From an uncultured archaeon (GTDB lineage: Archaea > Asgardarchaeota > Thorarchaeia > Thorarchaeales > Thorarchaeaceae): a stretch of DNA of 64,000 nucleotides. How positions within the stretch are numbered: position 1 is the stretch's first letter; each line of letters starts with the position of its first letter. The DNA is taken from positions 342,299 to 406,298 of the forward strand of contig CAZYLT010000001.1 in NCBI GenBank assembly GCA_964648855.1, given 5' to 3'. The notes beneath the pieces were generated by a model. The model saw only the letters and a list, made by a program, of their open reading frames with translations, ran no database searches and was not told where the DNA came from. This document shows, piece after piece, positions 1,340 to 34,919 of this stretch. The translations under genes and the position numbers were made by a program.

Positions 1340-2077
1340 ATGAGAAGTGTGAGCACAATGGAAAGTAAATTCAGTAGTCCGTTAAGCAGTCCTCTGTATC
1401 CCCCTCCACCCTACCATTACGAGAATGCAAGATTGTTTCTTTCATTATTCTATCCATCAGAGGATTCAGTTCAAACCCTTCTGCCAAAGCCCCTAATGCC
1501 CTCACAACTTCCGCTCATGGCCTTGCTTGTTGCGGAACAGCCGTGCAAAGAAACAGGTACCTTCATGGAGGCAGGCATACTCGTACAATGCATGTTTGAC
1601 AATCGCGAGTCGGGTGAAGAAGAGGTGGGCGTCTACTTCGCTCAGAACTTCGTTGATTCGGATATCGCTCTGGCTGCAGGGAGAGAGATTTGGGGCTATC
1701 CGAGAAAGCTGGCGAATATCTCTTTAGATTTGAAAGGAGATATGCTGAATGCAAAAGTCGTGCGAAACGGCAATATCTTACTCGAAACAATGTGCGAGCT
1801 CACCGATGAAGGAGAATGGATTGATAGCGGCCCCAATATCAATGCCAAAATATTACCAGAAGTGGGTGGTTCCAGCCACTCCATATTATCTCTGACCGCC
1901 ACATATCTCACATATGATATAAAGAATGGGCGCTCTGGTGATGTGCAAATAGACATTCAAGGTACACCTGATAACGGACTTGATGTCATTGAGATTGAGA
2001 GTTCCATGATCGGACTCTATTTTGATTGCGACATAACTGTCCCAGCAGGAAAAGAAATCGCCAAGTTAGAGCTATAG
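1340..2077 (+). CDS. Conserved hypothetical, possibly acetoacetate decarboxylase-like (ADC family) fold
   Basis: 245 aa, soluble, no cofactor motif seen. The length and N-terminal YPPPPYHYENARLFL segment resemble the YPxxPW region of ADC-family proteins. This is recalled from memory only. Confidence 0.35.
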   Translation: MRSVSTMESKFSSPLSSPLYPPPPYHYENARLFLSLFYPSEDSVQTLLPKPLMPSQLPLMALLVAEQPCKETGTFMEAGILVQCMFDNRESGEEEVGVYFAQNFVDSDIALAAGREIWGYPRKLANISLDLKGDMLNAKVVRNGNILLETMCELTDEGEWIDSGPNINAKILPEVGGSSHSILSLTATYLTYDIKNGRSGDVQIDIQGTPDNGLDVIEIESSMIGLYFDCDITVPAGKEIAKLEL

Positions 2078-3790
2078 ATACTCGCTCGCGTCCATTTTAG
2101 CCAATTTCAGACCAGCAAGCCTAGTGTTACGCCTAAAGAGAAGGTAGCATATCAGTGCAAAACCGGGTAGAGCAAGGTATGTGTAAAGCACATTCATGGT
2201 CAGCCCAATCGAAATCATCCCGAAAATCCCAATATAGCCCAGTAGCAGAGGGAAAATCAGAGCTCGCACCAGACTCCATATTGATATCGGCATTTGGGTT
2301 GAAGAGCCGCGCTGTCTCTCGATTTGACGCTCTGCCTTGAATTCCCCTCCATCTGCTGCTGCATAAGCGGCACTCGCACCTGATGCCATTGTCAAGAATA
2401 GCAGACCAATTGTGATGGCAGGAAGATACAGTAGCAAAATAGGAGTCAGGAAGTAGATGAAGACCGAGGTTATGACTCCGGCACCAATGGTAAATGGAAG
2501 AGCACTATACACTTTTCCCTTGAGATAATCCTGCAGATTTACACTCGCAAGCTGAAGGTTCATAATGTTATCGCCCTCATAGACTGTTTCCAATCCAGCA
2601 AAGTAATAACCATATGCGAGAGCAATTGGAATCACTGCGGATATCATTAGGTAAGGAGTGAATGCAAATATCATTTCTCCGCCTGCAAATGCTGGTAGAA
2701 TTATCCAGATTACATATCTAATGGGACCTAGGAGATACTGAGTCAATACTCTCGCTTCTCGTCTTATGGTCGAGATATTGTACCATACTGATGCACTGAT
2801 CGTTTGATTGAACTTGATGCCCGGTATTGGCTGTGGATCCCAGGTGGAGTGGTCTACGGGTGCAGCTTTCTTGGGTGTGCGTTTCTCTGCTGATGCAAGC
2901 CAGCCACTGTAATGTGCTTTTTCGCTAGCGATAGCGGTTAGATAAAGAAGGCCAACCGAGAGAAATCCATAGAAAATCGCCATAGCCAAATCCTGAATCG
3001 GGATAGGGAGTCCTACAAGAGTACGTAGTGTTATTGAGCTTGCAGCGTAGCCGGGTGTGAGGTCTGATGAGAATCCTAAGGATTGGAGAATATCAAATAC
3101 ACCCGTGAAGAGTCCAAATCCAAAACCGCCATCGGAAAGATAGAATGATGCATACCAAAGTGTACCACCGATTATCCCAGCAGCAGTGAGTATAGCATAG
3201 CCAACCTGTTTCAGTCTTCTTCGCCCCGCCACTAGCCTAGAAACCCCGAGGCCAAGTAGTCCACCAAAAGATACCCCAATAGCTATCAGCAAATACATTG
3301 ACAGAAGAAATACAGGAATAGATATGAAAGCAAAGAGAGCTGGAGACAGTATACTAAACCCAGCAAAAATCGACCCTCCAATCACCAACCAGAAAATGCT
3401 GTTGTAGAATACCGTAATGATGACCTTCTCCAAGAACAGAGTTCGGAGAGAGATGGGCATAACCATCAGATACTCCATTCGAGAGCTATTCGCAACTGTT
3501 GAAGCCATGACAGCAGTAGAGCCCAGAAAAGAGAATAACATGAGTGTGTTGAAAATTGTTGCTCCAAGCCCAGGATTTTCAGTAGCAACAGAACGTGCCA
3601 AGGGCCACAATGGTCTCCCGGGAAAAACAATGAAGAGTGTGATGATTACTGCGATAGCAATAGCTATCACCAATCTCGAAGATCTCTTCCAAAGAGGCTC
3701 AAGTTCAGTGCGTTTTCCGCCAGGATTCATAAAACGAAATGTTCTGGACAAATCTTGCCTGAGGAGGAAAATCAAATCAGATATGTTCAA
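2072..3790 (-). CDS. ABC-2 type transporter permease (multi-spanning membrane protein)
   Basis: 572 aa with more than 10 predicted hydrophobic helices. Its start overlaps the stop of the upstream ABC ATPase by 4 nt. The track start is TTG; the first ATG is at 3730. Confidence 0.6.
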   Translation of the reverse strand: MNISDLIFLLRQDLSRTFRFMNPGGKRTELEPLWKRSSRLVIAIAIAVIITLFIVFPGRPLWPLARSVATENPGLGATIFNTLMLFSFLGSTAVMASTVANSSRMEYLMVMPISLRTLFLEKVIITVFYNSIFWLVIGGSIFAGFSILSPALFAFISIPVFLLSMYLLIAIGVSFGGLLGLGVSRLVAGRRRLKQVGYAILTAAGIIGGTLWYASFYLSDGGFGFGLFTGVFDILQSLGFSSDLTPGYAASSITLRTLVGLPIPIQDLAMAIFYGFLSVGLLYLTAIASEKAHYSGWLASAEKRTPKKAAPVDHSTWDPQPIPGIKFNQTISASVWYNISTIRREARVLTQYLLGPIRYVIWIILPAFAGGEMIFAFTPYLMISAVIPIALAYGYYFAGLETVYEGDNIMNLQLASVNLQDYLKGKVYSALPFTIGAGVITSVFIYFLTPILLLYLPAITIGLLFLTMASGASAAYAAADGGEFKAERQIERQRGSSTQMPISIWSLVRALIFPLLLGYIGIFGMISIGLTMNVLYTYLALPGFALICYLLFRRNTRLAGLKLAKMDASEYL

Positions 3791-4560
3791 TTCCTCTCAC
3801 CAGAATCTTCAAGGTAACTCGCAATTAATTGCATATCGGGTCCACCAGTAAGCTCCAGGAAAATTTCTTCAAGAGAAGACTGACCTTCAGCCTTTTCGCG
3901 CAGCTCATCCAGAGTACCTTCGGCAATCATCTTGCCATCTTTAATTATTCCAACTCTATCGCACATTTGTTCTGCAATCTCTAGCACATGAGTAGACATG
4001 AGAATTGATGCCCCTCGCTTTCGCAGACCGTTGAGAATTTCTTTGACAGTTGCCGCACCCCGAGGATCTATACCTGCTTGTACTTCATCTAGAATCAAAA
4101 CCTGAGGTCTATGAACGAGAGCAGCAACCAAGCTTACCTTCCGTGTCATACCCTGTGAATATGTTTCAATGAGGTCATCGCTGGCATCCATGATATCAAG
4201 CAGTTCGAGGAGTTCCTCAATGTCTTCCGTTCTTTCTTCTCCTCGCTTGACCCTCCAAATATCTGCCACATAATTCACATATTCCCAACCAGTTAAGCGC
4301 TCAGGGAGTACGGGGTTTTCTGGAACATATCCTGTAACCCTCTTTGCCTTTACAATTTCATCCCTTATGCCATGACCGTTTATTTTGGCTGTTCCCTCTG
4401 TCGGCTTAAGCAGGCCTAGAAGCATTCGCATCGTCGTTGATTTGCCAGACCCATTTGGCCCGAGTAGGCCGTAAATTTCTCCAGAATTTACTGTGAACGA
4501 GAGATGGTCTACCGCGACAAAGTCCCCAAACTTCTTTGTAAGCTCAACAGCCTCAATCAT
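3787..4560 (-). CDS. ABC transporter ATP-binding protein
   Basis: Walker A GPNGSGKST, ABC signature YSQGMTRKVSL (LSGGQ-like), Walker B VLILDE, H-loop STHVLE. ATG start at 4560. Confidence 0.85.
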   Translation of the reverse strand: MIEAVELTKKFGDFVAVDHLSFTVNSGEIYGLLGPNGSGKSTTMRMLLGLLKPTEGTAKINGHGIRDEIVKAKRVTGYVPENPVLPERLTGWEYVNYVADIWRVKRGEERTEDIEELLELLDIMDASDDLIETYSQGMTRKVSLVAALVHRPQVLILDEVQAGIDPRGAATVKEILNGLRKRGASILMSTHVLEIAEQMCDRVGIIKDGKMIAEGTLDELREKAEGQSSLEEIFLELTGGPDMQLIASYLEDSGERN

Positions 4561-4638: not shown

Positions 4639-4646
4639 GTATAAAA
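4639..4646 (+). promoter_or_regulatory. Archaeal TATA box (GTATAAAA) with upstream A-rich BRE-like segment. A GAGGAG Shine-Dalgarno sits at 4677-4682, 8 nt before ATG 4691.
   Basis: The TATA box lies about 48 nt upstream of the radical-SAM gene ATG, and the purine-rich SD is correctly spaced. Both seen directly in sequence. Confidence 0.35.
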
Positions 4647-4690
4647 AGAGAGTCTAAATCCTCAGAGAGCACGTCAGAGGAGTATTGGCA

Positions 4691-5818
4691 ATGGCAAGTG
4701 AGGCGTCTGAAGAGAAAAGAAAGAACCAAAGCAAAGAATCGCCCGAGTATGTTAGGACGAGTCTTGCTGCCGCAATGACCATGAACAAGCTCCCAGGAAA
4801 ATTCTATCGTGATGCAAAACTCTACTGCATCAATCTCCTTTTGACTTATGATGAAGGATGCCATGCAAGATGTGCGTATTGTGGTCTCTCAAACTCTCGA
4901 GAAGTGGATACGGATTGGGTGGACAACAGCTTCATCAGGGTTGACTGGCCAATTTATCCTCTCAACGAAGTGAAAGAGGCACTATCAGATGGAACTTGCC
5001 CGCATGTAGAGAGAGTCTGTGTCTCGATGATAACACTAGGTTGTGCTCGAGAGGACTGTTTTAAGGTCGTTTCAGAGTTAAGAGAGGTAATCCCGCAGAT
5101 TTCGGTCTTAATCACACCGACCATTTTGAATGAGAATTGGCTGATTAGAGCCAAGGAGGCTGGAGCAGACAAGGTGGGTATCGCAGTAGATGCTGCCACT
5201 CCAGAACTATTTGAGAAGCTGCGGGGAAACGGAGTCAACGGCCCCCACAAGTGGAAGAAATATTGGCAAACCGTTGAGGAAGCAGTTGAAGTATTTGGTA
5301 AAGAGAATGTTGGAATTCATTTGATAGTTGGAGTTGGAGAGACCGAAAAGGAGATGGTTGATGCAATACAACGTGCCCAAGACCTTGGCGCTGACACCCA
5401 TCTCTTTTCTTTTTTCCCAGAAGAGGGTTCAGATATGCAAGACGATCCACAGCCACCTCTGGGTACGTACCGTCGGATTCAGGCTGCACGATATCTGATA
5501 AATAACGAATTAACCTCTGCAAAGAGAATGCAATTCAATAATCAAGGTCAGATTACAGATTTTGGCATCAGCAAGACCGAGTACAATCAAATGATGTCTG
5601 AGGGAAAGGCATTCATGACCTCGGGTTGCAACGGAACAACCATGGATAATGCATGCAATCGACCCTTTGGAAATTGCACCCCCTATCAGGCCTATATTGG
5701 ACACTGGAGGAACTTCCCGCTATCCCCTGATAAGGACGATTTGAAAAAGATTGCAGAACAGATACGAGACTACTCATTGAGCTATGAGATGGACGATGAC
5801 TATTTTGAAGATGAATGA
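4691..5818 (+). CDS. Radical SAM protein, biotin-synthase-related; candidate archaeal two-component lipoyl synthase subunit (LipS1/LipS2 type)
   Basis: CHARCAYCGL CxxxCxxC radical-SAM cluster motif. There is a second Cys-rich region (CNGTTMDNACNRPFGNC). It sits directly upstream of, and overlapping, a second radical SAM gene and two LplA genes. Track start 4685 is TTG; ATG at 4691. Confidence 0.6.
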   Translation: MASEASEEKRKNQSKESPEYVRTSLAAAMTMNKLPGKFYRDAKLYCINLLLTYDEGCHARCAYCGLSNSREVDTDWVDNSFIRVDWPIYPLNEVKEALSDGTCPHVERVCVSMITLGCAREDCFKVVSELREVIPQISVLITPTILNENWLIRAKEAGADKVGIAVDAATPELFEKLRGNGVNGPHKWKKYWQTVEEAVEVFGKENVGIHLIVGVGETEKEMVDAIQRAQDLGADTHLFSFFPEEGSDMQDDPQPPLGTYRRIQAARYLINNELTSAKRMQFNNQGQITDFGISKTEYNQMMSEGKAFMTSGCNGTTMDNACNRPFGNCTPYQAYIGHWRNFPLSPDKDDLKKIAEQIRDYSLSYEMDDDYFEDE

Positions 5819-6806
5819 GAGTCTTCTTGAACAGTGCTTCGAAGCAGAGGAGTATGATCTTAAGCCACTCTTTGAGATGGCTTTTGAATTGTCAAGAAAG
5901 AAGTTCTCAGAGGACATTATCTTCTATTCTCCAGGAATGATTCATTATCAGACCGAATTTCATGAGGCAACTGACCCATTTAGGTTTCCAAGCATCTCAA
6001 TAACTGGTAATTCTTGTGCCATTGGCTGCGAGCATTGTAGAGGAAGGCTTCTAGAAAGCATGATACATGCCACTACTCCAGAGGATCTCTGGAGAATCTG
6101 TGAAGAAATTGTCAGAAAGGGAGGCTCAGGGTGTCTGATAAGCGGTGGTTCAACTTCGCGAGGCAACACACCCTTGGAGCAGTTCATACCAATAATAGAG
6201 AGAGTAAAATCCGACTTAGACCTCAATGTCGTTGTCCACACAGGAATAGTATATCCCGAGATTGCTGAGGAACTTGGTCGAGCGGGAATAGATGGAGCCA
6301 TGCTTGATATTATTGGCTCACACCAAACCTTGGAAGAGATTTACCACCTCGATATGCCAGTGAGCATATTTGAGGACTCCATGCGACTTCTTAATGAGTA
6401 TAATGTTCCAATGATGCCACATATTATTGCTGGGCTATACCATGGGAAGCTCAATGGTGAGGACCAGGCAATCCGAATGATTGGAAAATATAATCCGGAT
6501 TCAATAGTGATTGTTGCCTTTATGCCGCTCGATGACACCCCAATGGAAAAAACGAATCCAGCGACACCCATGGATATAGCGAGGGTGGTACTTGGAGCGC
6601 GGTTGTACATTCAGGACCGCCCAGTCGTTCTTGGGTGTGCACGACCTCTTGGTCTACATCGTAGAAGCCTAGACCGACTTGCTATCGATGCGGGAGTGAA
6701 TGCCATAGCCTACCCTACTGAAGAAGGATACTCCTATGCAAAGAAGAGAAACCTATCAATCGGTTTATCGGACCAATGTTGTTCCTTGATAACTAAAAAA
6801 CTGTGA
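5784..6806 (+). CDS. Radical SAM protein, second candidate lipoyl synthase subunit (LipS1/LipS2 type)
   Basis: CAIGCEHC CxxxCxxC motif. It overlaps the upstream radical SAM gene by 35 nt at ATG 5784, or by 8 nt if the ATG at 5811 is used. That ATG is embedded in gATGAATGA, a classic translational-coupling overlap. 340 aa. Confidence 0.6.
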   Translation: MRWTMTILKMNESLLEQCFEAEEYDLKPLFEMAFELSRKKFSEDIIFYSPGMIHYQTEFHEATDPFRFPSISITGNSCAIGCEHCRGRLLESMIHATTPEDLWRICEEIVRKGGSGCLISGGSTSRGNTPLEQFIPIIERVKSDLDLNVVVHTGIVYPEIAEELGRAGIDGAMLDIIGSHQTLEEIYHLDMPVSIFEDSMRLLNEYNVPMMPHIIAGLYHGKLNGEDQAIRMIGKYNPDSIVIVAFMPLDDTPMEKTNPATPMDIARVVLGARLYIQDRPVVLGCARPLGLHRRSLDRLAIDAGVNAIAYPTEEGYSYAKKRNLSIGLSDQCCSLITKKL

Positions 6807-6810
6807 TAGC

Positions 6811-8439
6811 ATGAACAGAAATGACTTCGACAAATGGCGTCTCATTGACACAGGCATTTTGACAGGTGCCCAAAATATGGCCCTTGACGACGTCATCCTC
6901 GAGTGCCATGCGTACGAGAATACTCCGAATACCATAAGATTCCTTCAGTTCAATCCATCCACTGCATTGGTAGGATATCACCAATCGATTGAACAAGAAA
7001 TCAGAATCGATTTTTGTAAACACCATGGCATAGATATAAACCGACGACTTACGGGAGGAGGAGCCATCTTGTTTACGCCGACATGTCTTGGTTGGGAAGT
7101 CTTCGCAGATAAGTCGGTGTCAAGGATTAGAGATTTGAGAACTGACCTCGATAAACTTGCCCAATTAATCTGCGAAGGAACAGTAAGAGGACTTCAAGAA
7201 TTGGGAATAGAAGCAGAGTTCAGACCCAAGAATGATATCGAGGTCAATGGACGAAAAATCTCTGGGACTGGGGGGACTGAACGAGAGGATTCGTTCATGT
7301 ACCAGGGAACATTACTCGTAGATTTTGATGTCGAGCTGATGCTAAGAGCGCTTAGAATTCCTGTAGAGAAACTGCAGGATAAGGAAATTGAAAGCGTGAA
7401 AGAGAGAGTGACATGTCTGAAGTGGGAGTTAGGCCGGGTTCCACCGTTAGCGGATATTAAGCGAGCGATAGCTGATGGATTTCAGGAGGTTCTTGACATT
7501 CAACTGCAGGACAGGGGATTGTATCCAATTGAGTCGGAAATGTATAATCAAAAACTCCCCGAATTCGAATCTGAAGATTGGATAAACATGGTGAGAAAGC
7601 CTCTTGACTGGGCGGGAACCGTAAGCACGATGCGAAAGACCCCAGGAGGATTGATCAGGGCGTCTCTTTCAATAGATATCCCAGGCAACTATATTGTGAG
7701 TTCCTTCATTACAGGAGATTTCCAGGTATTTCCCCAGAGAGCTATCATGGACTTGGAGTCAACGTTAAAGAATTCAGACGCAAGCTATGCATCCATCAGA
7801 AACAACATACTGGACTTTTTCGAGTCTTCAAGAACCAGAATTTTCGGAATACCTCCTGAAATCGTAGCAGATACGATAATTGAAGCAGTGAAGAAAAAGT
7901 CCTTCGTCAACTACGGCTTTACATTGGATGACTCAAATCAATTGATGACCGTGAACTTCTTGCCTGATGAGTTGGAACAACAGCATTTTGATTTCGTGTT
8001 GTTGCCGTATTGTGCTAAACTCCTAGGCTGCGAGTATCGGTTTGTCGAAGGATGTTCAATGTGTGGCGGATGTTCTACCAACGATGTCTATAAACAGATT
8101 ACCGAGCTGAATGTCCCCGTTAGAACAATCCAGAACTTCGAAGATCTTGTGGAGACAGTTCACGAGTTTAAAGAAAAGGGGGCGCGTGGCTACGTTGGTT
8201 CTTGCTGTGATGCCTTCTACAGTAAGCATTACCAGGATTTCGTTGACATGGGCGTACCTGCTCTTCTAGTTGACGTAGATGATTCGACATGTTATGACTT
8301 AGGAGAGGAAGAAAAGGCATACGAAGGAACTTTCGAGGGACAGACGGTGCTGAAAACTGACCTAATATTGAAGGTTATCAATACGCTAACAAATATGGGA
8401 ATACTCCACAGTGGGGTGGTTCAACATCGCTCAGTATGA
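6811..8439 (+). CDS. lplA: Lipoate-protein ligase A family enzyme with a ~170-aa C-terminal Cys-rich extension
   Basis: BPL/LPL catalytic-domain motifs RRLTGGGAILF (RRxxGGGAV) and the lysine in GRKISGTGG. 542 aa against ~340 for canonical LplA. The extension contains CxxxxC, CxxCxxC and CC clusters (CAKLLGCEYRFVEGCSMCGGC ... GSCCDAF). Confidence 0.7.
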   Translation: MNRNDFDKWRLIDTGILTGAQNMALDDVILECHAYENTPNTIRFLQFNPSTALVGYHQSIEQEIRIDFCKHHGIDINRRLTGGGAILFTPTCLGWEVFADKSVSRIRDLRTDLDKLAQLICEGTVRGLQELGIEAEFRPKNDIEVNGRKISGTGGTEREDSFMYQGTLLVDFDVELMLRALRIPVEKLQDKEIESVKERVTCLKWELGRVPPLADIKRAIADGFQEVLDIQLQDRGLYPIESEMYNQKLPEFESEDWINMVRKPLDWAGTVSTMRKTPGGLIRASLSIDIPGNYIVSSFITGDFQVFPQRAIMDLESTLKNSDASYASIRNNILDFFESSRTRIFGIPPEIVADTIIEAVKKKSFVNYGFTLDDSNQLMTVNFLPDELEQQHFDFVLLPYCAKLLGCEYRFVEGCSMCGGCSTNDVYKQITELNVPVRTIQNFEDLVETVHEFKEKGARGYVGSCCDAFYSKHYQDFVDMGVPALLVDVDDSTCYDLGEEEKAYEGTFEGQTVLKTDLILKVINTLTNMGILHSGVVQHRSV

Positions 8440-9478
8440 TGTCGTCGTAGTTGGAGGAGGCCCCTCCGGCGCAGTTACTTCGCTTCTTCTGGCAAAAGAT
8501 GGCATGAAGGTCCTCCTACTTGAAAAGGGACATGAAAAAAGGCACAAAGCCTGTGGAGGAGTATTGCCTTCTGTTGCCCCTGATACCATTGAAGACATAA
8601 TAGACTCGGAAATTCCTGAGGAGGTTTTCGAAAATCCGAGAGAATTGGGTCTCTACTACGTTCCTCCAAGCGGGCCTAATAGTGGAGGTAGAGTTCGAAA
8701 CTACACCATTCATAATATAAATCGAACCCGTTTCGATTTTTGGTTACGCGAGTTAGCTGAAGAGGCAGAAGTGGAAATCCGATACAACACAAAAGCCACT
8801 TCAGTTTCAATAAATGAGAAGTCAACTAGGGTATCAATTCAGGGGCAGAAGGCAACTATCGAAACGCCTATTCTGGTTGGTGCAGATGGAGTAAGGTCGA
8901 CTGTTCGTAAATCCCTTTTTTCCGACACCAATGTTCCAATCATGGTCGTGGGCCAAGAGAAATGGATTGCGAAAGGAGATTTTGAAGACTGCTTTTACGG
9001 ATTCTTTCATGACAAATATTCAGTAGCTTATGCATACCTGATACCCAAACAAGATAGTATCCTCATTGGTCTTGGTGTGGAACCAAACAGAAAGCCAAGT
9101 TATGCGGAATCGCTAGATAGCTTTCGTTCAATGCTAATTGATGAGTTCTCGTTTGCCCCTGAAAAGATTGTTCGAAGGGAAAGTTGGGCAATTCCATTTG
9201 GATATTTCATGCCAGGTAAAGAGAATGCGATACTGGTCGGTGATGCTGCAGGGCTCTGTAATCCATTGTCTGGAGAGGGGATTAGATTGGCAATTGAGTC
9301 AGCGGAGTCAGCAGCCAATATCATTGCACATGCAGATCAATCTAAAATCATAGAAGATTATCAGCATGAGGTGAAAGGACTAGCTGATATGATTAATGAC
9401 CTCAATGATTTTGTAAGAGGGCTTGATAACGAAAAACGCGAACAATTTGTCTCAGAGGAACTATCAAGAGGATTCTGA
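8411..9478 (+). CDS. FAD-dependent oxidoreductase of the geranylgeranyl reductase (GGR) family
   Basis: N-terminal Rossmann DVVVVGGGPSGA, the GGR-type conserved Cys motif KACGGVLP, and a C-terminal GD motif LVGDAAGLCNPLSGEGI. GTG start overlaps the upstream LplA by 29 nt. Confidence 0.7.
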   Translation: MGWFNIAQYDVVVVGGGPSGAVTSLLLAKDGMKVLLLEKGHEKRHKACGGVLPSVAPDTIEDIIDSEIPEEVFENPRELGLYYVPPSGPNSGGRVRNYTIHNINRTRFDFWLRELAEEAEVEIRYNTKATSVSINEKSTRVSIQGQKATIETPILVGADGVRSTVRKSLFSDTNVPIMVVGQEKWIAKGDFEDCFYGFFHDKYSVAYAYLIPKQDSILIGLGVEPNRKPSYAESLDSFRSMLIDEFSFAPEKIVRRESWAIPFGYFMPGKENAILVGDAAGLCNPLSGEGIRLAIESAESAANIIAHADQSKIIEDYQHEVKGLADMINDLNDFVRGLDNEKREQFVSEELSRGF

Positions 9479-9526
9479 TAGCAAGAGATATAGTTGCCAA
9501 TCGCACACATTCTTTTTGTGTCCACT

Positions 9527-10618
9527 ATGAAAGAGCGATGGCGATTACTTGATTTGGGCGCTATTGAACCGCTTGAAACACAAATTATCTATGATATGGT
9601 TGCTCAAGGGATTACAGAGGGAGAATCACAGAATACAATCATCATTTGCTGGCCCGCTGAGCCCTTAGTTAGTGTAGGCTATTTCCAAGAGATTGAGAAG
9701 GATATAGACCTTGCATTTTGCCGGAAAAACGATATTGTGGTGACACGCCGTGTAATCGGGGGTGGAGGAGTCTACCTAGATGATGGACAGCTATTCTACC
9801 AATTAATTGGGCGAGTTGATAGTCCAACTACGCCAAAGCCCATTGATGCCTATTATCGGAAATTTCTCAAAGCACCAGTTCAAGCATATAGGAATCTTGG
9901 CATTGAAGCTGAATTTCGACCAGTTAATGATATTCAGGTCAATGAAAAGAAAATATCAGGAAATGGAGCAGGAGATGTTGGTGATGCTCGCATTCTCACC
10001 GGCAACATAATTTTAGATTTTGACTTCGAAATGATGGTGAAGGTTCTTCGAGTACCAAGTGAGAAATTTCGGGATAAAGTATACAAGAGCCTCAAAGACC
10101 GGCTGTCAACAATTCTACTTGAAACTGGATCAATGCCACAAAAAGACGAGATTAAAACCGACCTAATCAGGCTTTACGAGGAAACCCTTGACATTGAACT
10201 TGAGAAGGGCAAGTTATCTTCATGGGAAAAGAGCAGGATGTCAGAGCTCCGCTCCAAATACAAGTCAAATGAGTGGCTTCACTGGAGGAGTGGAGGCAGA
10301 CTTGATGCTCGAACTGTTAGAATATCCGCAACAGCCTCTGTTGGTACAGCGAGCCATAAGGCCGAAGGCGGGTTGATTCGGGTGACTGCAGAGGAGATAG
10401 AAAATGAGATCAATGAAATTGTCATTAGTGGAGATTTCTTCATGCTTCCGTCCACAGCAATCGGAGAACTTGAGAACAACCTGAAGGGCTCTACTCTTTC
10501 TAGAGACGCGATACTGGAAAGAATTAAGGAAAGCTATACTCAGCTGGATATTGATTCGCCAGGAGTCAAGCCAGAAGATATTGCTGATGCGATTGAGTTG
10601 GCCTTCGAACAAAAGTAA
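9527..10618 (+). CDS. lplA: Lipoate-protein ligase A (second LplA-family paralog, catalytic plus C-terminal accessory domain)
   Basis: RRVIGGGGVYL and NEKKISGNGAG lysine motif. ~364 aa from the ATG at 9527; the track start at 9494 is TTG. Confidence 0.75.
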   Translation: MKERWRLLDLGAIEPLETQIIYDMVAQGITEGESQNTIIICWPAEPLVSVGYFQEIEKDIDLAFCRKNDIVVTRRVIGGGGVYLDDGQLFYQLIGRVDSPTTPKPIDAYYRKFLKAPVQAYRNLGIEAEFRPVNDIQVNEKKISGNGAGDVGDARILTGNIILDFDFEMMVKVLRVPSEKFRDKVYKSLKDRLSTILLETGSMPQKDEIKTDLIRLYEETLDIELEKGKLSSWEKSRMSELRSKYKSNEWLHWRSGGRLDARTVRISATASVGTASHKAEGGLIRVTAEEIENEINEIVISGDFFMLPSTAIGELENNLKGSTLSRDAILERIKESYTQLDIDSPGVKPEDIADAIELAFEQK

Positions 10619-10675
10619 AGCGAAGGACCAATGAGGAATTTAACAAATCGCGTAAAGCCTTGAGGTGAACCAATC

Positions 10676-11761
10676 ATGCCGTCGGATGTTAGCTTTTCTG
10701 CGATTGCGCCCGGAAGAGTCTGCATCTTTGGAGAACACAGTGACTACTTGGGACTAGATGTGATTCCCGCAGCAATTAGCATGCATATCGAGATTTCTTG
10801 TTCACCACGCGATGATCGTCTAATGGATATCAGATATTCGGATTTGGGAACAAAGGATACGTTCGAGATTGATACAAAAATCGATTATGCCCATGAGAGG
10901 GACTATGTTAGAAGTGCATTTAATGTACTTAGAAGGCAGGGACTTACTCTCTCTTCAGGATGGTCAATGTATGTTAGAGGAAACATACCAATTGCAGGAG
11001 GACTATCCAGCTCGTCAGCATTAGCTGTCGCATCAGTCCTGGCATATTCTAGAATGGCTGGAGAATCCCTGAATCCCAAAGCATTAGCCGAGCTTGCATT
11101 CCAGGCTGAGGTCAAGGAATTTGGAGAAAGCGGAGGTATGATGGATCATTATGCATCTGCGTACGGTGGAATCATACACTTGACTACAAAACCTAAGATA
11201 GAGGTGACCAGAATCCCTACATCCATTAGTGGGTTCGTCATTGGTGACTCGGGGGAGGAGAAGAAAGATACCGTGGGAGATCTGGAAGAAATCCGCAATT
11301 TGGCTGAGAAGGGATACAACAAACTAGCACAGTACGTAGACAATTTCGACCAAACCAAAACAGCCCTTGAGAAGGTTCAACCATTCCTGAAACGGCTTTC
11401 CTCAAGAGAGCAGACAGTGGTGGAAACGACCATCAAAAATAGGGACTTAACACAGCGTGCATATGATACTCTAAAGTCTAGTAACTACGAACCTGAAGAG
11501 TTAGGCTCAATGATTGATCAACATCATATCTATTTGCGTGATGGTCTGAAGCGATCGACCAAGAAAATAGAAAAGATGATACGAGCTGCAAAGAAAGCAG
11601 GAGCTTTGGGCTGCAAAATCAACGGAAGCGGTGGAGGAGGAACGATGCTAGCATATTGTCCAGGAAAGGTGGATGTTGTTTCATCAGCTATAGAGAGAGC
11701 AGGGGGGACACCATATGTGGTCAGTATTGGACAGGGCGCCCACCTGAGCGTCCAAGATTGA
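10676..11761 (+). CDS. GHMP-family sugar/small-molecule kinase (galactokinase-like signature)
   Basis: N-terminal APGRVCIFGEHSDYLG (galactokinase-type GRxNxxGEHxDY), GHMP ATP-binding loop PIAGGLSSSSALAVA, and a C-terminal GSGGGG. Confidence 0.7.
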   Translation: MPSDVSFSAIAPGRVCIFGEHSDYLGLDVIPAAISMHIEISCSPRDDRLMDIRYSDLGTKDTFEIDTKIDYAHERDYVRSAFNVLRRQGLTLSSGWSMYVRGNIPIAGGLSSSSALAVASVLAYSRMAGESLNPKALAELAFQAEVKEFGESGGMMDHYASAYGGIIHLTTKPKIEVTRIPTSISGFVIGDSGEEKKDTVGDLEEIRNLAEKGYNKLAQYVDNFDQTKTALEKVQPFLKRLSSREQTVVETTIKNRDLTQRAYDTLKSSNYEPEELGSMIDQHHIYLRDGLKRSTKKIEKMIRAAKKAGALGCKINGSGGGGTMLAYCPGKVDVVSSAIERAGGTPYVVSIGQGAHLSVQD

Positions 11762-11766
11762 AGAGG

Positions 11767-13329
11767 TTAGTCGCTCGATGCAAGATCTTCCATTCTGCGT
11801 TCAACTATGCCAAGTATTTCGTCTTTGAGATTCTCGCTCTCTTCAATGAGCTCCTCAACTTCCTTTCGAATGTTCTTGACGAATTTCTCGTCCTTAATAT
11901 TGTCAAGATTTATTCTGACATTGAGAGATGCTGCCTTGATTGCGGCTGAGAGTGCATATGCAGCGCCGCCAGCATCAGTTATGGCATTGATATTGCCCTT
12001 CTCTGCAGCAACTTTTGCATGAGTGAGTGCCTCATATGATTGCTTCATGGTTTCTAATGGAATCTCAGCAGCATGAATTGTTGCTTCCTCTACGGCTTCT
12101 TCTTTCGTTTGTTTTTCCTCTTCATTTCCTTCAGGAAGCTTATAAGTTTCCATCACTTTTTCAAAGGCTTCAGAGTCCTTCTCAACCATGTCCAGCAGAA
12201 CACCCCTGTTTGTTTCACAGGCATGTCGATGATCAAGCATCTCCTTTTTGATTGCAGCAAATTTTCTTCCAGTCAATGAGAGACCTGTGACCATGCATAC
12301 AAGAGCCGCGCCATAAGAGCCCATAACTGCAGCAACACTTCCTCCACCAGGAGTTGCTCTGGCTCGTCGCACCTGATTCCCGAATTCGATTAAGGACATT
12401 TCAGTGAACGACTTCTCAGTGGGCTCTTCAGCACCACCAAGATAATACAAATCGAGAATCATTGATTCATCGAGATTCTCTGGTTGCAGATAGTACTTGA
12501 GAGCGTCAATCAAAGCGAAGAGAGGTACCATTCCAATAATCTCGGTTTCAACGACAGTGGCACCAAAACGTTTCGCTTCGTTCCTCACAACTTCAAGAAC
12601 CTGATGTATCTTGGTTCTCTTGGGATGGGTGAGATTGCATGAAACCTGAACCATTCCCTTATCCGGCAAGTCCAGGCCAATACCTTGCACATACACAAAG
12701 CCACCAGTGGTTGCTCTAACTGCATTCGCACAGACCTTTGCTACCTCAACATTAGTTGTATTAAGGTTGAAATTGATTGCAATCAGGAAGAATCGTGCTC
12801 CGGTAGCAGTGGCACCAGCTGTTGGATTGATTTTGTTAGGGCCATAATCAGGAGTCCTACTCTCATCCTCTCCGATGGTTTCACGAAGCCCTTCAAATTC
12901 TCCTTGACGAATATTAGGCAATTCTTCTCGTTCAGGACGCGTTGCGGATTTCTCATAGAGGTATACGGGTACATCATGCTTCTCAGAATATTCCTTGGCG
13001 AATTCTTTTGACAGCTCTATACACTCGCCAATGGTTACTCCGTGTAGCGGAATGAAAGGAACAACATCAACTGCGCCCATTCGAGGGTGAGCTCCCTCGT
13101 GTTTGCTCATGTCAATTCGTTCTACTGCAACATCCGCTGCCTTCAGAGCTGCCTGTTTAACCTTCTGTGGTTCTCCTATGAATGTGAATACCGACCTGTT
13201 GTGATCAGGGTCATATTCAACATTAAGAAGACGAACACCATCAACGCTCTTGATGGCATCAGCCAATTCATCAATTACCTCTTTTCGACGACCCTCGCTG
13301 AAATTGGGTACACATTCGACAACCTTCAT
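11767..13329 (-). CDS. ftcD: Bifunctional glutamate formimidoyltransferase / formimidoyl-THF cyclodeaminase
   Basis: N-terminus MKVVECVPNFSEGR is the hallmark start of the formiminotransferase domain. The C-terminal ~200 aa are helical, consistent with a cyclodeaminase domain. ~520 aa. Track start 13341 is TTG; ATG at 13329. Confidence 0.75.
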   Translation of the reverse strand: MKVVECVPNFSEGRRKEVIDELADAIKSVDGVRLLNVEYDPDHNRSVFTFIGEPQKVKQAALKAADVAVERIDMSKHEGAHPRMGAVDVVPFIPLHGVTIGECIELSKEFAKEYSEKHDVPVYLYEKSATRPEREELPNIRQGEFEGLRETIGEDESRTPDYGPNKINPTAGATATGARFFLIAINFNLNTTNVEVAKVCANAVRATTGGFVYVQGIGLDLPDKGMVQVSCNLTHPKRTKIHQVLEVVRNEAKRFGATVVETEIIGMVPLFALIDALKYYLQPENLDESMILDLYYLGGAEEPTEKSFTEMSLIEFGNQVRRARATPGGGSVAAVMGSYGAALVCMVTGLSLTGRKFAAIKKEMLDHRHACETNRGVLLDMVEKDSEAFEKVMETYKLPEGNEEEKQTKEEAVEEATIHAAEIPLETMKQSYEALTHAKVAAEKGNINAITDAGGAAYALSAAIKAASLNVRINLDNIKDEKFVKNIRKEVEELIEESENLKDEILGIVERRMEDLASSD

Positions 13330-13468
13330 GCGTGTCACCAAGCCCGTCGGATAAGTTCAAGCAAAAAAGCATTTGGGAATCGGGGGTTTAGTCGAAAAAT
13401 GATGTCAGATAGGCAAAAAAGAGACGCGAATTGCACATCTGGTCATTTCTTGTTCCAAGCAGCTAGGG

Positions 13469-14404
13469 TTAGCTTGTATATCCACCATAATCTATGGCGT
13501 CGACAATGAAGACATTGGTCTGGTTCTGCAGATACGTATAGGCTGCAAGTACATTTCTGAGTAACATGGCAATAGTCATTGGCCCCACACCACCAGGTAC
13601 CGGAGTAATGTAAGATGCTTTCTCCTTAACAGTTTCAAAATCGACATCACCCTTTGGCGTAGCCACATCTATGACAATTGCACCCTCTTTAACCATCTCT
13701 TCAGTGATAAAATACGGGTCGTCATTGGATTCCCGAAGTCCAACCGCAGTGACAAGAATATCTGCTTGCTTAGTCATACTTGAGATGTCCTTGGTCTTCG
13801 AATGGCAAACGGAAACCGTAATGTCTCTGTCAAGCAACATGAAAATTAGTGGTTTGCCGACTATAGTAGATCGGTTAATGATGACCGCGTCTTTTCCTTT
13901 CAAATCAACCGGTAGTAAATCCAGCATCGTGACAATACCTTGAGGAGTCGCAGCACTCAAGAATTCATTCCCATGGAATAACCGATATATGTTCCTCGGG
14001 GAAAATCCATCAACATCTTTACCAGGCGATATTGCATCAATAACCTCCTCTTCATCGATATGACTTGGCAGAGGCAACTGTACGAGTATACCATGAACAT
14101 CACGGTCTTGATTGAGTTCCTGTATCAGGTCGATAAGCTCCTCTTCGGTCGTGTTCCCCGGTAAATCATGGGTTTCGGAAAGAATACCGGCCTTTTCACA
14201 GGCTCGCTGTTTCATACGCACATACATTTTGGACCCTGGGTCCTCACCAACAATAATGGCGACTAGCTTTGGCGGTGTTCCGTGTACCTCAGTCAGATGC
14301 TGAACTTCTTCCTTGATGTGCTGTCGTATCTTTTTTGCCAGAGTCTTGCCGTCAATGACTTTTCCTTCTACGAATTCCTCAAGTGCAATGTCGTATTCGC
14401 TCAT
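13469..14404 (-). CDS. folD: Bifunctional 5,10-methylene-THF dehydrogenase / 5,10-methenyl-THF cyclohydrolase
   Basis: VIDGKTLAKKIRQHIKEEVQ ... PKLVAIIVGEDPGSKMYVRMKQRACEKAGI ... HGILVQLPLP ... GGVGPMT are all FolD hallmarks. 311 aa. Confidence 0.85.
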   Translation of the reverse strand: MSEYDIALEEFVEGKVIDGKTLAKKIRQHIKEEVQHLTEVHGTPPKLVAIIVGEDPGSKMYVRMKQRACEKAGILSETHDLPGNTTEEELIDLIQELNQDRDVHGILVQLPLPSHIDEEEVIDAISPGKDVDGFSPRNIYRLFHGNEFLSAATPQGIVTMLDLLPVDLKGKDAVIINRSTIVGKPLIFMLLDRDITVSVCHSKTKDISSMTKQADILVTAVGLRESNDDPYFITEEMVKEGAIVIDVATPKGDVDFETVKEKASYITPVPGGVGPMTIAMLLRNVLAAYTYLQNQTNVFIVDAIDYGGYTS

Positions 14405-14415
14405 GTTGAATCCTC

Positions 14416-16011: not shown

Positions 16012-16295
16012 TTTTCCTACACCAGTGAAAGTAAACTTTTGATTAGTTGTTCCAATCAGTGCAAGTATTGACTGATAAAATGCACCGTATGGCTGTAGAG
16101 GCGGTTTGGTCAATCATGGTTGTGTCAGAAATGCACTCTTTTACAAAAGGTCTTGGCAATTATTACTGAAAAAAAGATGAGGCAGGGTGTTTATCCGCCT
16201 ATTGGGCTGAGAAATATGAATAGGCTTCCTCTCGAGGCACTGCCAGATGCATTGCCAGATGAAATTGATGTCGAAAAATATGTGATTTGCACGTA

Positions 16296-17380: not shown

Positions 17381-17396
17381 GGCGCTCACCCGCTTT

Positions 17397-27596: not shown

Positions 27597-27710
27597 ACAG
27601 GTTACTCGGAGATGGTCACTAATCAAGTTTTACCAATGCTTCAGGGGTATATTCCCGCACCAAGCACCTTAAAGGTAGGTAGTCTTGATACGATACAAGA
27701 GTTGACAAGG

Positions 27711-28874: not shown

Positions 28875-28885
28875 GAGAGTATTGA

Positions 28886-32873: not shown

Positions 32874-32973
32874 GGCGAAAAACTCCTAAATACCTTACAT
32901 CTCCTTGGTCGAGGACACTTATATTAAATGCGGAATCCAGAACAATAGCGTGATTGAGTTGAGTCCGGACTGG

Positions 32974-34333: not shown

Positions 34334-34427
34334 ATGTATGGTGTGGAATGTGGGCAAGAACAGTTCTCTGTCAACATCCGAATATGTTATGACGGAGAAC
34401 ATTGCTTGCCATGAAGAGGATTCCTCA

Positions 34428-34898: not shown

Positions 34899-34919
34899 AG
34901 CTTGATGAGTATCTCGTAA

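Follow-up and report, generated by a model that had tools for sequence, protein, structure and literature searches.

The canonical route to the lipoyl cofactor relies on LipA, a single radical-SAM enzyme with a sacrificial auxiliary cluster and N-terminal Cx4Cx5C and RSSY motifs, together with LipB or LipM, which draw on acyl-ACP. In T. kodakarensis the chemistry is divided between two radical-SAM proteins: LipS2 (TK2248) works on the octanoyl group at C8, and LipS1 (TK2109) then works at C6, each carrying one Cx3Cx2C motif plus three cysteines and a histidine for an auxiliary [Fe4S4] cluster (Neti 2022, PMC9585515). The typical archaeal gene order is lipS2-lplA-lplB-lipS1, without LipT or DUF116 (PMC10332631). 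In the sLpl(AB)-LipS1/LipS2-LipT pathway (PMC6067878, PMC10332631), a ligase and two radical-SAM sulfur insertases are clustered with an FAD protein resembling geranylgeranyl reductases (GGRs). This protein, LipT, is the proposed electron donor, its use of NAD(P)H being a proposal only, and the lipS1-slpl(AB)-lipT-lipS2 set suffices to lipoylate LbpA in E. coli (Tanabe 2023, PMC10332631). In the accompanying survey, two Thorarchaeia genomes scored for LipS1, and one of the two also for LipS2.

We analysed a 64-kb stretch of DNA (the window) from an Asgard archaeon. Five co-oriented genes at 4685-10618, which are overlapping or closely spaced by ORF reading, very probably constitute a LipS1/LipS2-type lipoyl-cofactor assembly operon of a Thorarchaeota-like genome. 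The locus has the same set of ligase, sulfur insertases and GGR-like FAD protein as the sLpl(AB) clusters. However, its host is an Asgard archaeon, its gene order is S2-S1-Lpl-T, no sHdr, LbpA, TusA or DsrE genes lie near the operon, and its ligase ends in a DUF116 domain in which eight cysteines are invariant. It differs from the typical archaeal order in having both LipT and DUF116. The operon thus represents the described two-enzyme route, flavoprotein included, and the LplA::DUF116 fusion is its one undescribed element.

Gene layout and the two radical-SAM proteins

4640-4647, + strand: TATA-box-like element TATAAAAA, found by eye against the archaeal TATA consensus
4677-4682, + strand: GAGGAG, Shine-Dalgarno-like, found by eye against the consensus
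4685-5818, + strand: g1, LipS2-like radical-SAM protein, predicted C8 sulfur insertion (NCBIfam NF053743)
5784-6806, + strand: g2, LipS1-like radical-SAM protein, predicted C6 sulfur insertion (NCBIfam NF053742)
6811-8439, + strand: g3, LplA-type ligase (catalytic and accessory domains) with C-terminal DUF116 (Pfam)
6868-7485, + strand: g3 LplA catalytic domain, residues 20-225, catalytic Lys149 in GRKISGTGG
7618-7905, + strand: g3 accessory (LplB-equivalent) domain, residues ~270-365 (NCBIfam LplB and 3r07_C matches)
7990-8400, + strand: g3 DUF116 domain, residues ~394-530, Cys-rich (Pfam PF01976)
8411-9478, + strand: g4, LipT-like FAD flavoprotein of the GGR superfamily (TIGR02032)
9494-10618, + strand: g5, second LplA-type ligase, probable start ATG 9527, 363 aa (Pfam)

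An earlier reading made from the letters alone (the sequence-only reading) had proposed a five-gene operon at 4685-10618 preceded by a TATA box and a GAGGAG Shine-Dalgarno sequence, and all five ORFs and, by eye, both signals are present as it described, on the + strand. The TATA-like element TATAAAAA sits within a 124-nt divergent intergenic region. GAGGAG lies 8 nt upstream of ATG 4691, which is therefore a likelier start for g1 than TTG 4685. A scan for sigma-70 sites, a model that is not archaeal, found 13 against 13.3 expected, no excess. The first two genes overlap by 35 nt (8 nt if ATG 5811 starts g2), g2 and g3 are 4 nt apart, and g3 and g4 overlap by 29 nt, GTG 8411 being the sole in-frame start before the FAD motif of g4. 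The gap between g4 and g5 is 15 nt (start TTG 9494) or 48 nt (ATG 9527).

The family matches are not chance, with HMM E-values of 1e-64 for LipS2, 7e-62 for LipS1, 8e-52 for the GGR superfamily, and 9e-46 and 4e-35 for the LplA catalytic domains of the two ligases. The protein g1 scores 218.9 bits on the LipS2 model (equivalog cut-off 270) and g2 scores 209.4 bits on the LipS1 model (cut-off 230), both below cut-off, and neither cross-matches the other's LipS model. BioB and PylB give 26 and 27 bits with g1, and BioB gives 35 bits with g2; the LipS models lead by more than 170 bits, with BioB/PylB at 35 bits or less. The pair is thus LipS1/LipS2-like, as had been suggested.

Exactly one Cx3Cx2C motif occurs in each protein (C59x3C63x2C66 in g1, C78x3C82x2C85 in g2), as the sequence-only reading had noted, together with three more invariant cysteines and an invariant histidine. 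Across 60 orthologs of g1, C112, C315, C324, H188, H212 and H239 are invariant; its C-terminal cysteine pair is Cx8C, whereas that of T. kodakarensis LipS2 is CxxC. In g2, the invariant C285, C332, C333 and H213 have offsets identical to those of the auxiliary-cluster ligands C230, C276, C277 and H159 of T. kodakarensis LipS1. A motif search found neither Cx4Cx5C nor RSSY in g1 or g2, in agreement with the claim that neither is LipA-like.

The ligase-DUF116 fusion and its cassette

The ligase encoded by g3 matches Pfam LplA-B_cat with 156.8 bits, and its full-length relatives at or above 48% identity number more than 120. All of 91 sequences compared retain R78, R79, G82-G84 and K149. LplB of T. 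acidophilum (chain 3r07_C) matches the accessory region, as does NCBIfam LplB at residues 276-359 (29.8 bits, cut-off 65). This region is modelled as a beta-sheet with helices in the AlphaFold2 prediction of g3 (pLDDT 89, pTM 0.85).

The C-terminal region matches DUF116 (PF01976) above cut-off (27.4 bits versus 25, residues 394-496), and the Cys-rich fusion domain proposed for one LplA is therefore real. Its eight cysteines (C401, C407, C415, C418, C421, C465, C466 and C494), which include CxxCxxC, are invariant in the same 91 sequences, and its predicted fold is flavodoxin-like. The sequence-only reading had given this domain passing mention only. Canonical DUF116 proteins (arCOG02078, COG1852) share the PF01976 match, CxxCxxC and predicted flavodoxin-like fold. 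However, they have two N-terminal transmembrane helices and their genes lie next to those for ATPases or for sulfite or nitrite reductases (PMC5898192), whereas the g3 subfamily is soluble and LplA-fused. Makarova 2015 independently predicted that the family binds metal and transfers electrons (PMC5898192). The fusion to a ligase is not mentioned in Cao 2018 (PMC6067878), Tanabe 2023 or the supplements of the latter (PMC10332631).

The flavoprotein g4 had been described as no known component of lipoate metabolism. This does not hold: its match is LipT in the published lipS1-lpl-lipT-lipS2 clusters (Tanabe 2023, PMC10332631), and g4 shares 29% identity (E 7e-22) with the LipT found in a sulfur-oxidiser cluster. 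It exceeds the GGR superfamily cut-off (176.8 versus 158.8 bits on TIGR02032), scores only 67 bits versus 580 on the archaeal lipid reductase model, and has a GGGPSG motif at residues 15-20; its Cys48, within KACGG, is invariant. Pfam GGR_cat gives no match to g4 at E <=0.01, although the protein P0159 and the LipT of cluster L083, both described below, do match.

The genes lipS2, lipS1, lpl::DUF116 and lipT form a four-gene cassette that is conserved in archaea and bacteria. The fusion occurs in Asgard, Bathyarchaeia, Nitrososphaeria, Chloroflexota, Desulfobacterota and Bacillota, and a profile of the g3-type DUF116 subfamily has 211 representatives among 1.84 billion, nearly all full-length ones being LplA fusions. 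Synteny was compared in 80 loci of many phyla. The gene immediately 3' of Lpl::DUF116 encodes LipT in 67 of 70 loci (66 by tblastn and L070 by ORF reading), with a median ORF-based gap of -14 nt. Both LipS genes accompany the fusion in 39 of the 41 loci with enough flank, and a GcvH-family gene lies within 8 kb in 16 loci. The sequence-only reading had asked for the gene order in Asgard relatives, and had held that it would fail if the order were kept in no relative or if BioB or PylB scored best. The organism belongs to the Asgard archaea and its relatives include Thorarchaeota. Gene order is conserved, g5 excepted, and the LipS models lead over BioB and PylB; neither test refutes the proposal.

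Rarer proteins join further modules. P0159 is LplA-DUF116-LipT in one polypeptide, a single representative in which an assembly frameshift could have joined two overlapping genes, and P0242, P0253 and P0247 are LplA-DUF116-CdhB-like proteins. Both P0159 and P0242 are located in TusA/DsrE clusters with radical-SAM genes, and some such redox-module fusions are located in sulfur-oxidiser LbpA clusters. L083, the cluster that contains P0242, additionally encodes LipT, a LipY-like protein and a GcvH that is LbpA-like. In P0242, the first ligase module shares 46% identity with the LplA portion of g3.

A possible electron path and its alternatives

Probably, the ligase octanoylates an acceptor and LipS2 and then LipS1 insert sulfur; LipT with DUF116 may supply the electrons. 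Family membership, the conserved lysine and the accessory domain suggest that the LplA part of g3, and g5 separately, would use ATP to activate octanoate or lipoate in its free form and then load it onto the lipoyl-lysine of an acceptor, for instance a GcvH-type protein, rather than draw on acyl-ACP as in the LipB/LipM route. No GcvH or E2 acceptor gene was found in the 64-kb window. From the HMM matches and the ligands conserved with the T. kodakarensis enzymes, g1 would put sulfur at C8 and g2 then at C6, both enzymes relying on a radical-SAM [4Fe-4S] cluster together with an auxiliary cluster that is sacrificed. This order, given in the sequence-only reading, agrees with Neti 2022 (PMC9585515). 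The end product and type of chemistry would be those of canonical LipA.

Synteny, domain fusions and the cysteine pattern are the grounds on which we propose the electron step. One electron per SAM cleavage would pass from LipT (g4, FAD) to an Fe-S centre on the eight DUF116 cysteines and on to LipS, and the ligase fusion would hold this reductase chain near the acceptor-binding platform. That the domain may feed electrons to the sulfur-inserting enzymes in this way is a tentative assignment from sequence features. The proposed logic, from flavoprotein reductase through Fe-S carrier to radical-SAM lipoyl synthase, is that of the human system, in which FDXR is the flavoprotein reductase feeding FDX1 and LIAS is the synthase. 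Human lipoylation reportedly depends on the ferredoxin FDX1 (PMC10470009). However, the proteins are unrelated: the window has a GGR-family flavoprotein and DUF116 in place of FDXR and a [2Fe-2S] ferredoxin, and its presumed carrier is fused to the ligase. The Thioalkalivibrio ligase was said to be without even a small C-terminal domain (Cao 2018, PMC6067878); Tanabe 2023 later argued for an LplB domain in it, and its lipS1-slpl(AB)-lipT-lipS2 set functions in E. coli (PMC10332631). This ligase apparently has no DUF116 domain, and if so, DUF116 is not universally required alongside LipT. GGR-family enzymes can accept electrons from ferredoxins, and if that direction applies to LipT, the proposed electron flow is reversed.

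It is rather unlikely that DUF116 serves as an Fe-S cluster or sulfur donor that rebuilds the LipS1/LipS2 auxiliary clusters at each turnover, with LipT powering reductive cluster assembly. The auxiliary cluster of E. coli LipA is rebuilt by NfuA or IscU. Eight invariant cysteines could bind a labile or transferable cluster, and the tight co-occurrence with LipS suits any obligate helper. By analogy with classical lipoyl synthase the LipS1/LipS2 auxiliary clusters would be consumed, and their mapped [Fe4S4] ligands are required for sulfur attachment (PMC9585515). However, Pfam and NCBIfam show no similarity of DUF116 to Nfu, IscU, SufU or A-type carriers, its fusion partners are flavin/nucleotide-binding modules (LipT, CdhB-like) and not cysteine desulfurases or scaffolds, and CxxCxxC in a flavodoxin-like fold was taken as electron transfer by Makarova 2015 (PMC5898192).

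Quite unlikely is a scheme in which LipT is a true substrate reductase, perhaps acting on the lipoyl disulfide or on the double bond of an unsaturated C8 acyl precursor, with DUF116 as ferredoxin-like electron input and a general cellular ferredoxin or flavodoxin reducing the radical-SAM enzymes. Methanosarcina GGR requires a neighbouring ferredoxin, and at the position of the retained Cys48 GGRs presumably have their catalytic cysteine, next to the flavin. The superfamily score of g4 also fits, and the substrate of the archaeal LipM homologs, hence the acyl source there, is left unresolved by Tanabe 2023 (PMC10332631). Against this, the known pathway has no step requiring C=C or disulfide reduction, LipT is preferred as electron donor in the same work (PMC10332631), and g4 fails to match GGR_cat. 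The same cassette also occurs in Chloroflexota, Desulfobacterota and Bacillota, which are expected to make fatty acids the ordinary way.

DUF116 as a zinc-binding structural, docking or redox-sensing domain, which recruits LipS1, LipS2 and LipT or gates the ligase with no electron or cluster transfer, is improbable. The low-confidence Cys-rich loops (pLDDT 64-75 in the domain model) suit zinc as well as Fe-S, fusion to a ligase suits a scaffold, and the pTM of 0.85 suggests that the domain sits at a fixed place relative to the ligase. However, eight invariant cysteines with CxxCxxC and a CC pair exceed the need of a simple zinc knuckle, and the recurrent flavin/nucleotide partners point to redox chemistry. 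Finally, sub-equivalog scores, former annotation of LipS1/LipS2 as biotin synthases (PMC9585515) and a biotin synthase as closest PDB radical-SAM match of g2 (E 0.0036) could suggest another BioB-like sulfur-insertion or maturation pair (biotin, PylB, HydE-like) coincidentally beside a ligase, but this is highly improbable given the bit-score lead, the LipS-ligase linkage in 39 of 41 loci of several phyla, the frequent GcvH in the same cluster and the scoring of LipS1/LipS2 in Thorarchaeia (Tanabe 2023, PMC10332631).

The second ligase

The sequence-only reading had regarded two LplA genes in one operon as unusual and offered a ligase plus an octanoyltransferase, or two ligases. Both proteins are probably ligases, but g5 is not part of the conserved module. 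An octanoyltransferase is unlikely because both paralogs keep the catalytic lysine and the accessory C-terminal domain needed by ligases; neither g3 nor g5 matches the LipM or LipB models. The protein g5 (LplA-B_cat 122 bits, Lip_prot_lig_C 31.9 bits) is 31% identical to g3 and has orthologs of 364-365 aa across Asgard. It is a resident Asgard ligase beside which the four-gene cassette lies. A g5-type ligase is present without the cassette in one Thor locus (L086), and it adjoins GcvH in L085, annotated as Lokiarchaeia, and in L087, an Asgard-type metagenome contig.

A probable five-gene lipoylation locus with a LipS1/LipS2-like pair

A six-frame ORF listing of the window contains five co-oriented genes, to which families were assigned by NCBIfam and Pfam HMM scans. 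The corrected annotation is lipS2, lipS1, lpl::DUF116, lipT and lplA:

4685–5818 (+), 377 aa: g1, lipS2
5784–6806 (+), 340 aa: g2, lipS1
6811–8439 (+), 542 aa: g3, lpl::DUF116 (ligase with a fused DUF116 domain)
8411–9478 (+), 355 aa: g4, lipT (GGR-like flavoprotein)
9494–10618 (+), 374 aa: g5, lplA (second ligase)

The location agrees with that in an earlier sequence-only reading of this DNA, as do the junctions: g1 and g2 overlap by 35 nt (or 8 nt), g2 and g3 are separated by 4 nt, g3 and g4 overlap by 29 nt, and g4 and g5 are 15 or 48 nt apart. The sequence TATAAAAA at 4640–4647 and GAGGAG at 4677–4682, both judged by eye, lie upstream of g1. The spacing of the GAGGAG favors ATG 4691 as the g1 start, and g5 likelier starts at ATG 9527 because its orthologs are 364–365 aa long. 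The GC content is even throughout the region (0.42–0.46). A scan for sigma-70 promoters and intrinsic terminators, which is ill-suited to archaea, gave no excess relative to shuffled sequences.

LipS2 is the best family for g1 by more than 160 bits (NF053743, 218.9 bits, E 1e-64), with the next radical-SAM families at 56 bits or less (BioB 26, PylB 27). The best family for g2 is LipS1 (NF053742, 209.4 bits, E 7e-62), followed by BioB at 35 bits. In the HMM scan g1 does not match the LipS1 model and g2 does not match the LipS2 model. Both proteins score under the strict NCBIfam equivalog cut-offs (270 bits for LipS2, 230 bits for LipS1) and are therefore diverged members. The LipS1/LipS2-like identity proposed from sequence alone is thus upheld, and assignment to BioB or PylB is rejected (26–35 bits against 225 for TIGR00433; 18–27 bits against 348 for TIGR03910). 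LipA is rejected as well, as the sequence-only reading had anticipated: regex searches find a single Cx3Cx2C in each protein and neither Cx4Cx5C nor RSSY, and the HMM scan gives no match to a LipA model. A PDB sequence search returned no match for g1 and only marginal matches for g2, to a GGGP synthase fragment and a biotin synthase.

Ligand conservation was assessed in an alignment of about 60 orthologs taken from loci related to this one. In g2, C78, C82 and C85 are present, and C285, C332–C333 and H213 are invariant at +200, +247/248 and +128 relative to the third radical-SAM cysteine. The auxiliary-cluster ligands of Thermococcus kodakarensis LipS1 are C230, C276, C277 and H159 (PMC9585515), at the near-equal offsets +196, +242/243 and +125. 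Like LipS1, g2 therefore combines Cx3Cx2C with an auxiliary-cluster ligand set that includes a CC pair. In g1, C59, C63 and C66 are present, and C112, C315, C324, H188, H212 and H239 show no variation among 60 orthologs. The auxiliary [Fe4S4] ligands of T. kodakarensis LipS2 (TK2248) are C85, C276, C279 and H178 (PMC9585515). Compared by number and order, three cysteines and one histidine of g1 could correspond to these; however, the C-terminal pair is Cx8C in g1 and CxxC in TK2248.

LipS2 works first, on the octanoyl group at C8, and LipS1 follows at C6 with 8-mercaptooctanoyl as its substrate (Neti 2022, PMC9585515), a division of labor that the earlier reading had given correctly. By homology, g1 is LipS2-like and predicted to insert sulfur at C8 of an octanoyl-lysyl substrate, and g2 is LipS1-like and would insert sulfur at C6 after the C8 step. 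Proteins of Thorarchaeia were scored as LipS1 by the HMM of Tanabe 2023, whose supplement includes Thorarchaeia genomes, and LipS1/LipS2 are reportedly commoner than LipA in Asgardarchaeota (PMC10332631).

A lipoate ligase fused to DUF116 and followed by LipT

The flavoprotein g4 belongs to the GGR superfamily (TIGR02032, 176.8 bits, above the cut-off of 158.8) and has GGGPSG at residues 15–20. It aligns with the LipT of L083, a locus with an LbpA-type cluster of the kind found in sulfur oxidizers (29% identity over 305 residues, E 7e-22). Like LipT, it is an FAD-binding GGR-superfamily protein inside a lipS1/lipS2/lpl cluster. Since lipS1-slpl(AB)-lipT-lipS2 clusters have been described (Tanabe 2023, PMC10332631), the sequence-only reading was mistaken in placing this flavoprotein outside known lipoate metabolism. 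An archaeal digeranylgeranylglycerophospholipid reductase is rejected (NF041080, 67.3 bits against a cut-off of 580), as is a lipid reductase tied to the adjoining GHMP kinase, given that score of 67/580 bits and the occurrence of the gene beside the ligase in bacteria too.

The pathway and the flavoprotein are thus already known, and the undescribed element of the locus is the LplA::DUF116 fusion. The LplA catalytic domain of g3 matches PF21948 at 156.8 bits, and K149, R78, R79 and G82–G84 are invariant in the g3 family. Its accessory domain scores 29.8 bits with LplB (below the cut-off of 65), matches 3r07_C and is a folded domain in a confident AlphaFold2 model of the protein (pLDDT 89, pTM 0.85). 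Residues 394–496 match Pfam DUF116 (PF01976/arCOG02078) over profile positions 41–143 of 155 with 27.4 bits (cut-off 25), and scores in g3 relatives reach 50 bits. Eight cysteines show no variation across 91 sequences (C401, C407, C415, C418, C421, C465, C466 and C494), in the context LLPYCAK...C...GCxxCGxC...G(S/C)CC...TCY, with C415, C418 and C421 forming CxxCxxC. In the model the domain folds as a parallel alpha/beta sandwich, and its Cys loop is unstructured.

Canonical DUF116 proteins stand alone and have two N-terminal transmembrane helices. In contrast, the g3 domain directly follows the LplA accessory domain and leaves profile positions 1–40 unmatched. For the membrane-anchored stand-alone form, Makarova 2015 predicted a metal-binding, flavodoxin-like, electron-transfer protein (PMC5898192). 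This was the only paper we found that discusses DUF116, and none in the literature searched links the family to lipoate. Neither Cao 2018 (PMC6067878), nor Tanabe 2023 with its supplements (PMC10332631), nor the other literature searched was found to mention the fusion, and public databases label g3 relatives 'DUF116 domain-containing protein'.

The fusion family comprises more than 120 full-length clusters at 48% identity or above. In a scan with one genome per species, all of the best 80 loci have a g3 relative, and in 78 the match extends into DUF116, to query residue 500 or further, the other two being cut by contig ends. These 80 loci come from Thorarchaeota (63–79%), Bathyarchaeia, Nitrososphaeria, Thermoplasmata, Baldr- and Jordarchaea, Chloroflexota, Desulfobacterota and Bacillota. 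A word-index search that used only the DUF116 domain as query (12 candidates, three matches) was uninformative on stand-alone DUF116 and was replaced by an exhaustive profile search, in which a profile of the fused domain recovered just 211 representatives from 1.84 billion proteins. Almost all full-length matches are about 500–560 aa with the domain at about 370–525, and shorter ones look like fragments. This rarity, together with the LplA-fusion architecture, identifies the fused DUF116 as a distinct LplA-bound subfamily.

Several of the profile matches carry further domains. P0159 (825 aa) is LplA-DUF116-LipT in a single polypeptide and adjoins a radical-SAM gene, TusA and DsrE. In P0242 (1117 aa), P0253 and P0247 a CdhB-like module (PF02552) follows DUF116; the CdhB fold probably binds a nucleotide cofactor. 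P0242 and P0159 retain all eight cysteines. The context of P0242 is TusA-DsrE-TusA-DsrE-GcvH(LbpA)-rSAM-P0242-LipT-rSAM-Toluene_X, which corresponds to the sulfur-oxidizer maturation cluster of Cao 2018 (PMC6067878) and Tanabe 2023 (PMC10332631), including a LipY-like transporter. In the Thermoplasmata locus L046, where GcvH and LipS2 lie upstream of Lpl::DUF116, LipT is replaced by four genes (9819–14032) that look by motif like HdrC, HdrB, NuoE/HdrA-like and NuoF. These fusions and contexts indicate that DUF116 repeatedly partners flavin- or nucleotide-dependent redox modules.

A widespread four-gene core beside a resident ligase

Synteny was counted by tblastn of the window proteins against related loci. 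ORF-based counting was rejected because in high-GC bacteria spurious antisense ORFs displaced the real gene and LipT was undercounted. Of the 70 loci with enough downstream sequence, 66 have a LipT-like gene beginning no more than a few dozen bases from where Lpl::DUF116 ends; a tblastn-negative locus, L070, has a LipT-like gene overlapping by 29 nt, bringing the count to 67/70. The median ORF-based gap, -14 nt, points to translational coupling. Of the 41 loci with sufficient sequence on either side, 39 contain both LipS genes. The order is mostly S2-S1-Lpl-T in archaea and mostly Lpl-T-S2-S1 in bacteria. Gene order is therefore clearly conserved among relatives, and the sequence-only reading is not refuted by the absence of conservation that it had named as a refuting result. 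The four-gene core with a DUF116-fused ligase is widespread, and we found it nowhere described as such, whereas the layout with five genes is confined to a subset of Thorarchaeota.

In 16 loci a GcvH-family gene occurs no more than 8 kb away, in many cases as part of the cluster itself, which supports protein lipoylation as the function. Relatives of the cassette in 15–16 lineages (L030, L033, L035, L046, L049, L051, L052, L056, L058, L059, L061, L071, L073, L074, L078 and L080) have four further types of gene within 8 kb. These are a GcvH-family gene with the lipoyl-Lys motif LETGKW, one or two HdrD/GlcF-like genes (Fer4 dicluster and two CCG domains) and, in 11 and 7 loci respectively, genes for a GlcD-like FAD oxidase and an OsmC-like protein. 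Such neighborhoods look like a dedicated lipoyl-protein redox system, and their gene content differs from that of published sHdr-LbpA clusters.

The second ligase, g5, has an LplA catalytic domain (PF21948, 122.2 bits) with EKKISG and RRVIGGGG aligned to Thermoplasma acidophilum LplA, and an accessory domain (Lip_prot_lig_C 31.9 bits, cut-off 24; LplB 62.8 bits). Both g3 and g5 thus have the lipoyl-AMP-binding Lys and RRxxGGG of an LplA catalytic domain, plus the LplB-equivalent accessory domain on which adenylation depends. With TIGR00545 (equivalog cut-off 280) g3 scores 138.7 and g5 150 bits, both distant from the E. coli-type seed; the closest PDB entries are T. acidophilum LplA/LplB and a streptococcal ligase.

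The sequence-only reading had left a choice between a ligase plus an octanoyltransferase and two ligases. HMM scans of g3 and g5 gave no LipM or LipB match and both keep accessory domains, which argues against the octanoyltransferase. Nor is g5 a recent duplicate, as its identity to g3 is 31% and orthologs of its own occur throughout Asgard archaea. At 63% identity or above, about 100 protein clusters are orthologous to g5, the named ones nearly all from Thorarchaeota, and orthologs at 45–50% identity occur in Loki-, Jord-, Hod- and Helarchaea. One lies directly after a GcvH gene in L085, annotated as Lokiarchaeia, and in L087, a metagenome contig.

The Thor genome locus L086 shares the surroundings of g5 in the window but lacks the other four genes: PAP2, acetoacetate-decarboxylase-like, membrane protein and ABC ATPase genes lie on one side of the ligase, and GHMP kinase, FTCD, FolD and FTHFS follow on the other. 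The four genes come after the ligase in L008, the ligase is missing in L004 and L011, and the four genes occupy an unrelated context in L001. From these arrangements we infer that the four genes are a cassette placed beside a resident ligase, g5. Two ligases of different origin, probably with different roles, are thus the better fit; possibly g5 serves resident GcvH-directed salvage and g3 cassette-coupled octanoylation.

A possible electron supply, and neighboring genes

Published assays of LipS1/LipS2 were run on dithionite, and electron supply by LipT from NAD(P)H has been put forward only as a proposal (PMC10332631). A ligase-fused eight-Cys domain, nearly always immediately upstream of LipT and sometimes fused to LipT or a CdhB-like module, is a testable candidate for the physiological link. 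Judging from family features, g3 (and g5) would ligate octanoate or lipoate onto an acceptor. Sulfur insertion at C8 by g1 and then at C6 by g2 would follow, by homology and ligand conservation with the Thermococcus proteins, for which alone these steps are shown. Synteny, the fusions and the Cys pattern suggest that electrons might pass from LipT(FAD) through DUF116(Fe-S) to the radical-SAM clusters.

Taken as a whole, it is possible, if on balance somewhat doubtful, that DUF116 is an iron-sulfur redox module forming with LipT a ligase-bound electron chain that reduces the LipS1/LipS2 radical-SAM clusters, a prokaryotic functional counterpart of FDXR/FDX1 feeding LIAS, within a four-protein machine spread as a cassette in anaerobic archaea and bacteria. 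Human lipoylation reportedly depends on FDX1 (PMC10470009), a functional analogy for such a relay. Against it, a LipT-containing gene set of Thioalkalivibrio works in E. coli (PMC10332631), and Cao 2018 (PMC6067878) described the Thioalkalivibrio ligase as lacking even the small C-terminal domain, a view later disputed by Tanabe 2023 (PMC10332631). If that ligase is without DUF116, as we presume, the domain is not universally required. The direction of electron flow could also be the reverse. As rivals to the relay, the domain may donate clusters or sulfur, provide the ferredoxin-like input of a substrate-reducing LipT, or act as a zinc scaffold. The relay role, if true, would give a first function to a DUF116 subfamily. 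The spread of the cassette over Asgard archaea, Bathyarchaeia, Nitrososphaeria, Chloroflexota, Desulfobacterota and Bacillota suggests that it may be a common anaerobe route to lipoyl proteins.

The 64-kb window yielded no lipoyl acceptor: E. coli GcvH, an E2 lipoyl domain and BCCP gave no significant tblastn match, a weak match at 32145–32354 lies in an OMP decarboxylase, and Pfam scans of 37 further window ORFs gave no GcvH, GcvT, GcvP, E1, E2 or E3. Four sizeable ORFs have no Pfam match at E <= 1e-5: 42066–44384 (+, 772 aa), 32905–34002 (+, 365 aa), 34052–34975 (-, 307 aa) and 22709–23299 (-, 196 aa).

A GHMP-family kinase gene (10676–11761, +) with a strong GAGGTGA ribosome-binding site begins 57 nt after g5. 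It is below the cut-offs of both mevalonate-kinase and galactokinase models and has a galactokinase signature. In nine Thor loci the kinase gene comes immediately after the lip genes, even without g5, and it occupies the same place in L086, which has no cassette, so its position probably reflects conserved synteny rather than function. Just downstream, formiminotransferase-cyclodeaminase, FolD and formate-THF ligase genes stand in a row (11767–16113, -), in the same order as in other Thor loci. Although the window has no Gcv genes, this folate one-carbon trio might be connected with glycine cleavage or with reductive glycine metabolism. On the upstream side (2072–4560, -) are a divergent ABC ATPase (3787–4560) and a multi-pass membrane protein of 572 aa that matches no Pfam family (2072–3790), which adjoin the lip genes in eight Thor loci and are also found in L086 without the cassette.

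Further along, at 27513–30604 (+), a GT4 glycosyltransferase gene is followed by one for a protein with the Rossmann-like domain of BshC, a bacillithiol biosynthesis protein (70 bits), which could be a sign that an Asgard archaeon has a pathway to a low-molecular-weight thiol resembling bacillithiol. A gene for the SAM-cleaving SAM hydroxide adenosyltransferase (16622–17389, -), followed by an NAD kinase gene (17397–18554), lies near the radical-SAM operon, probably by coincidence.
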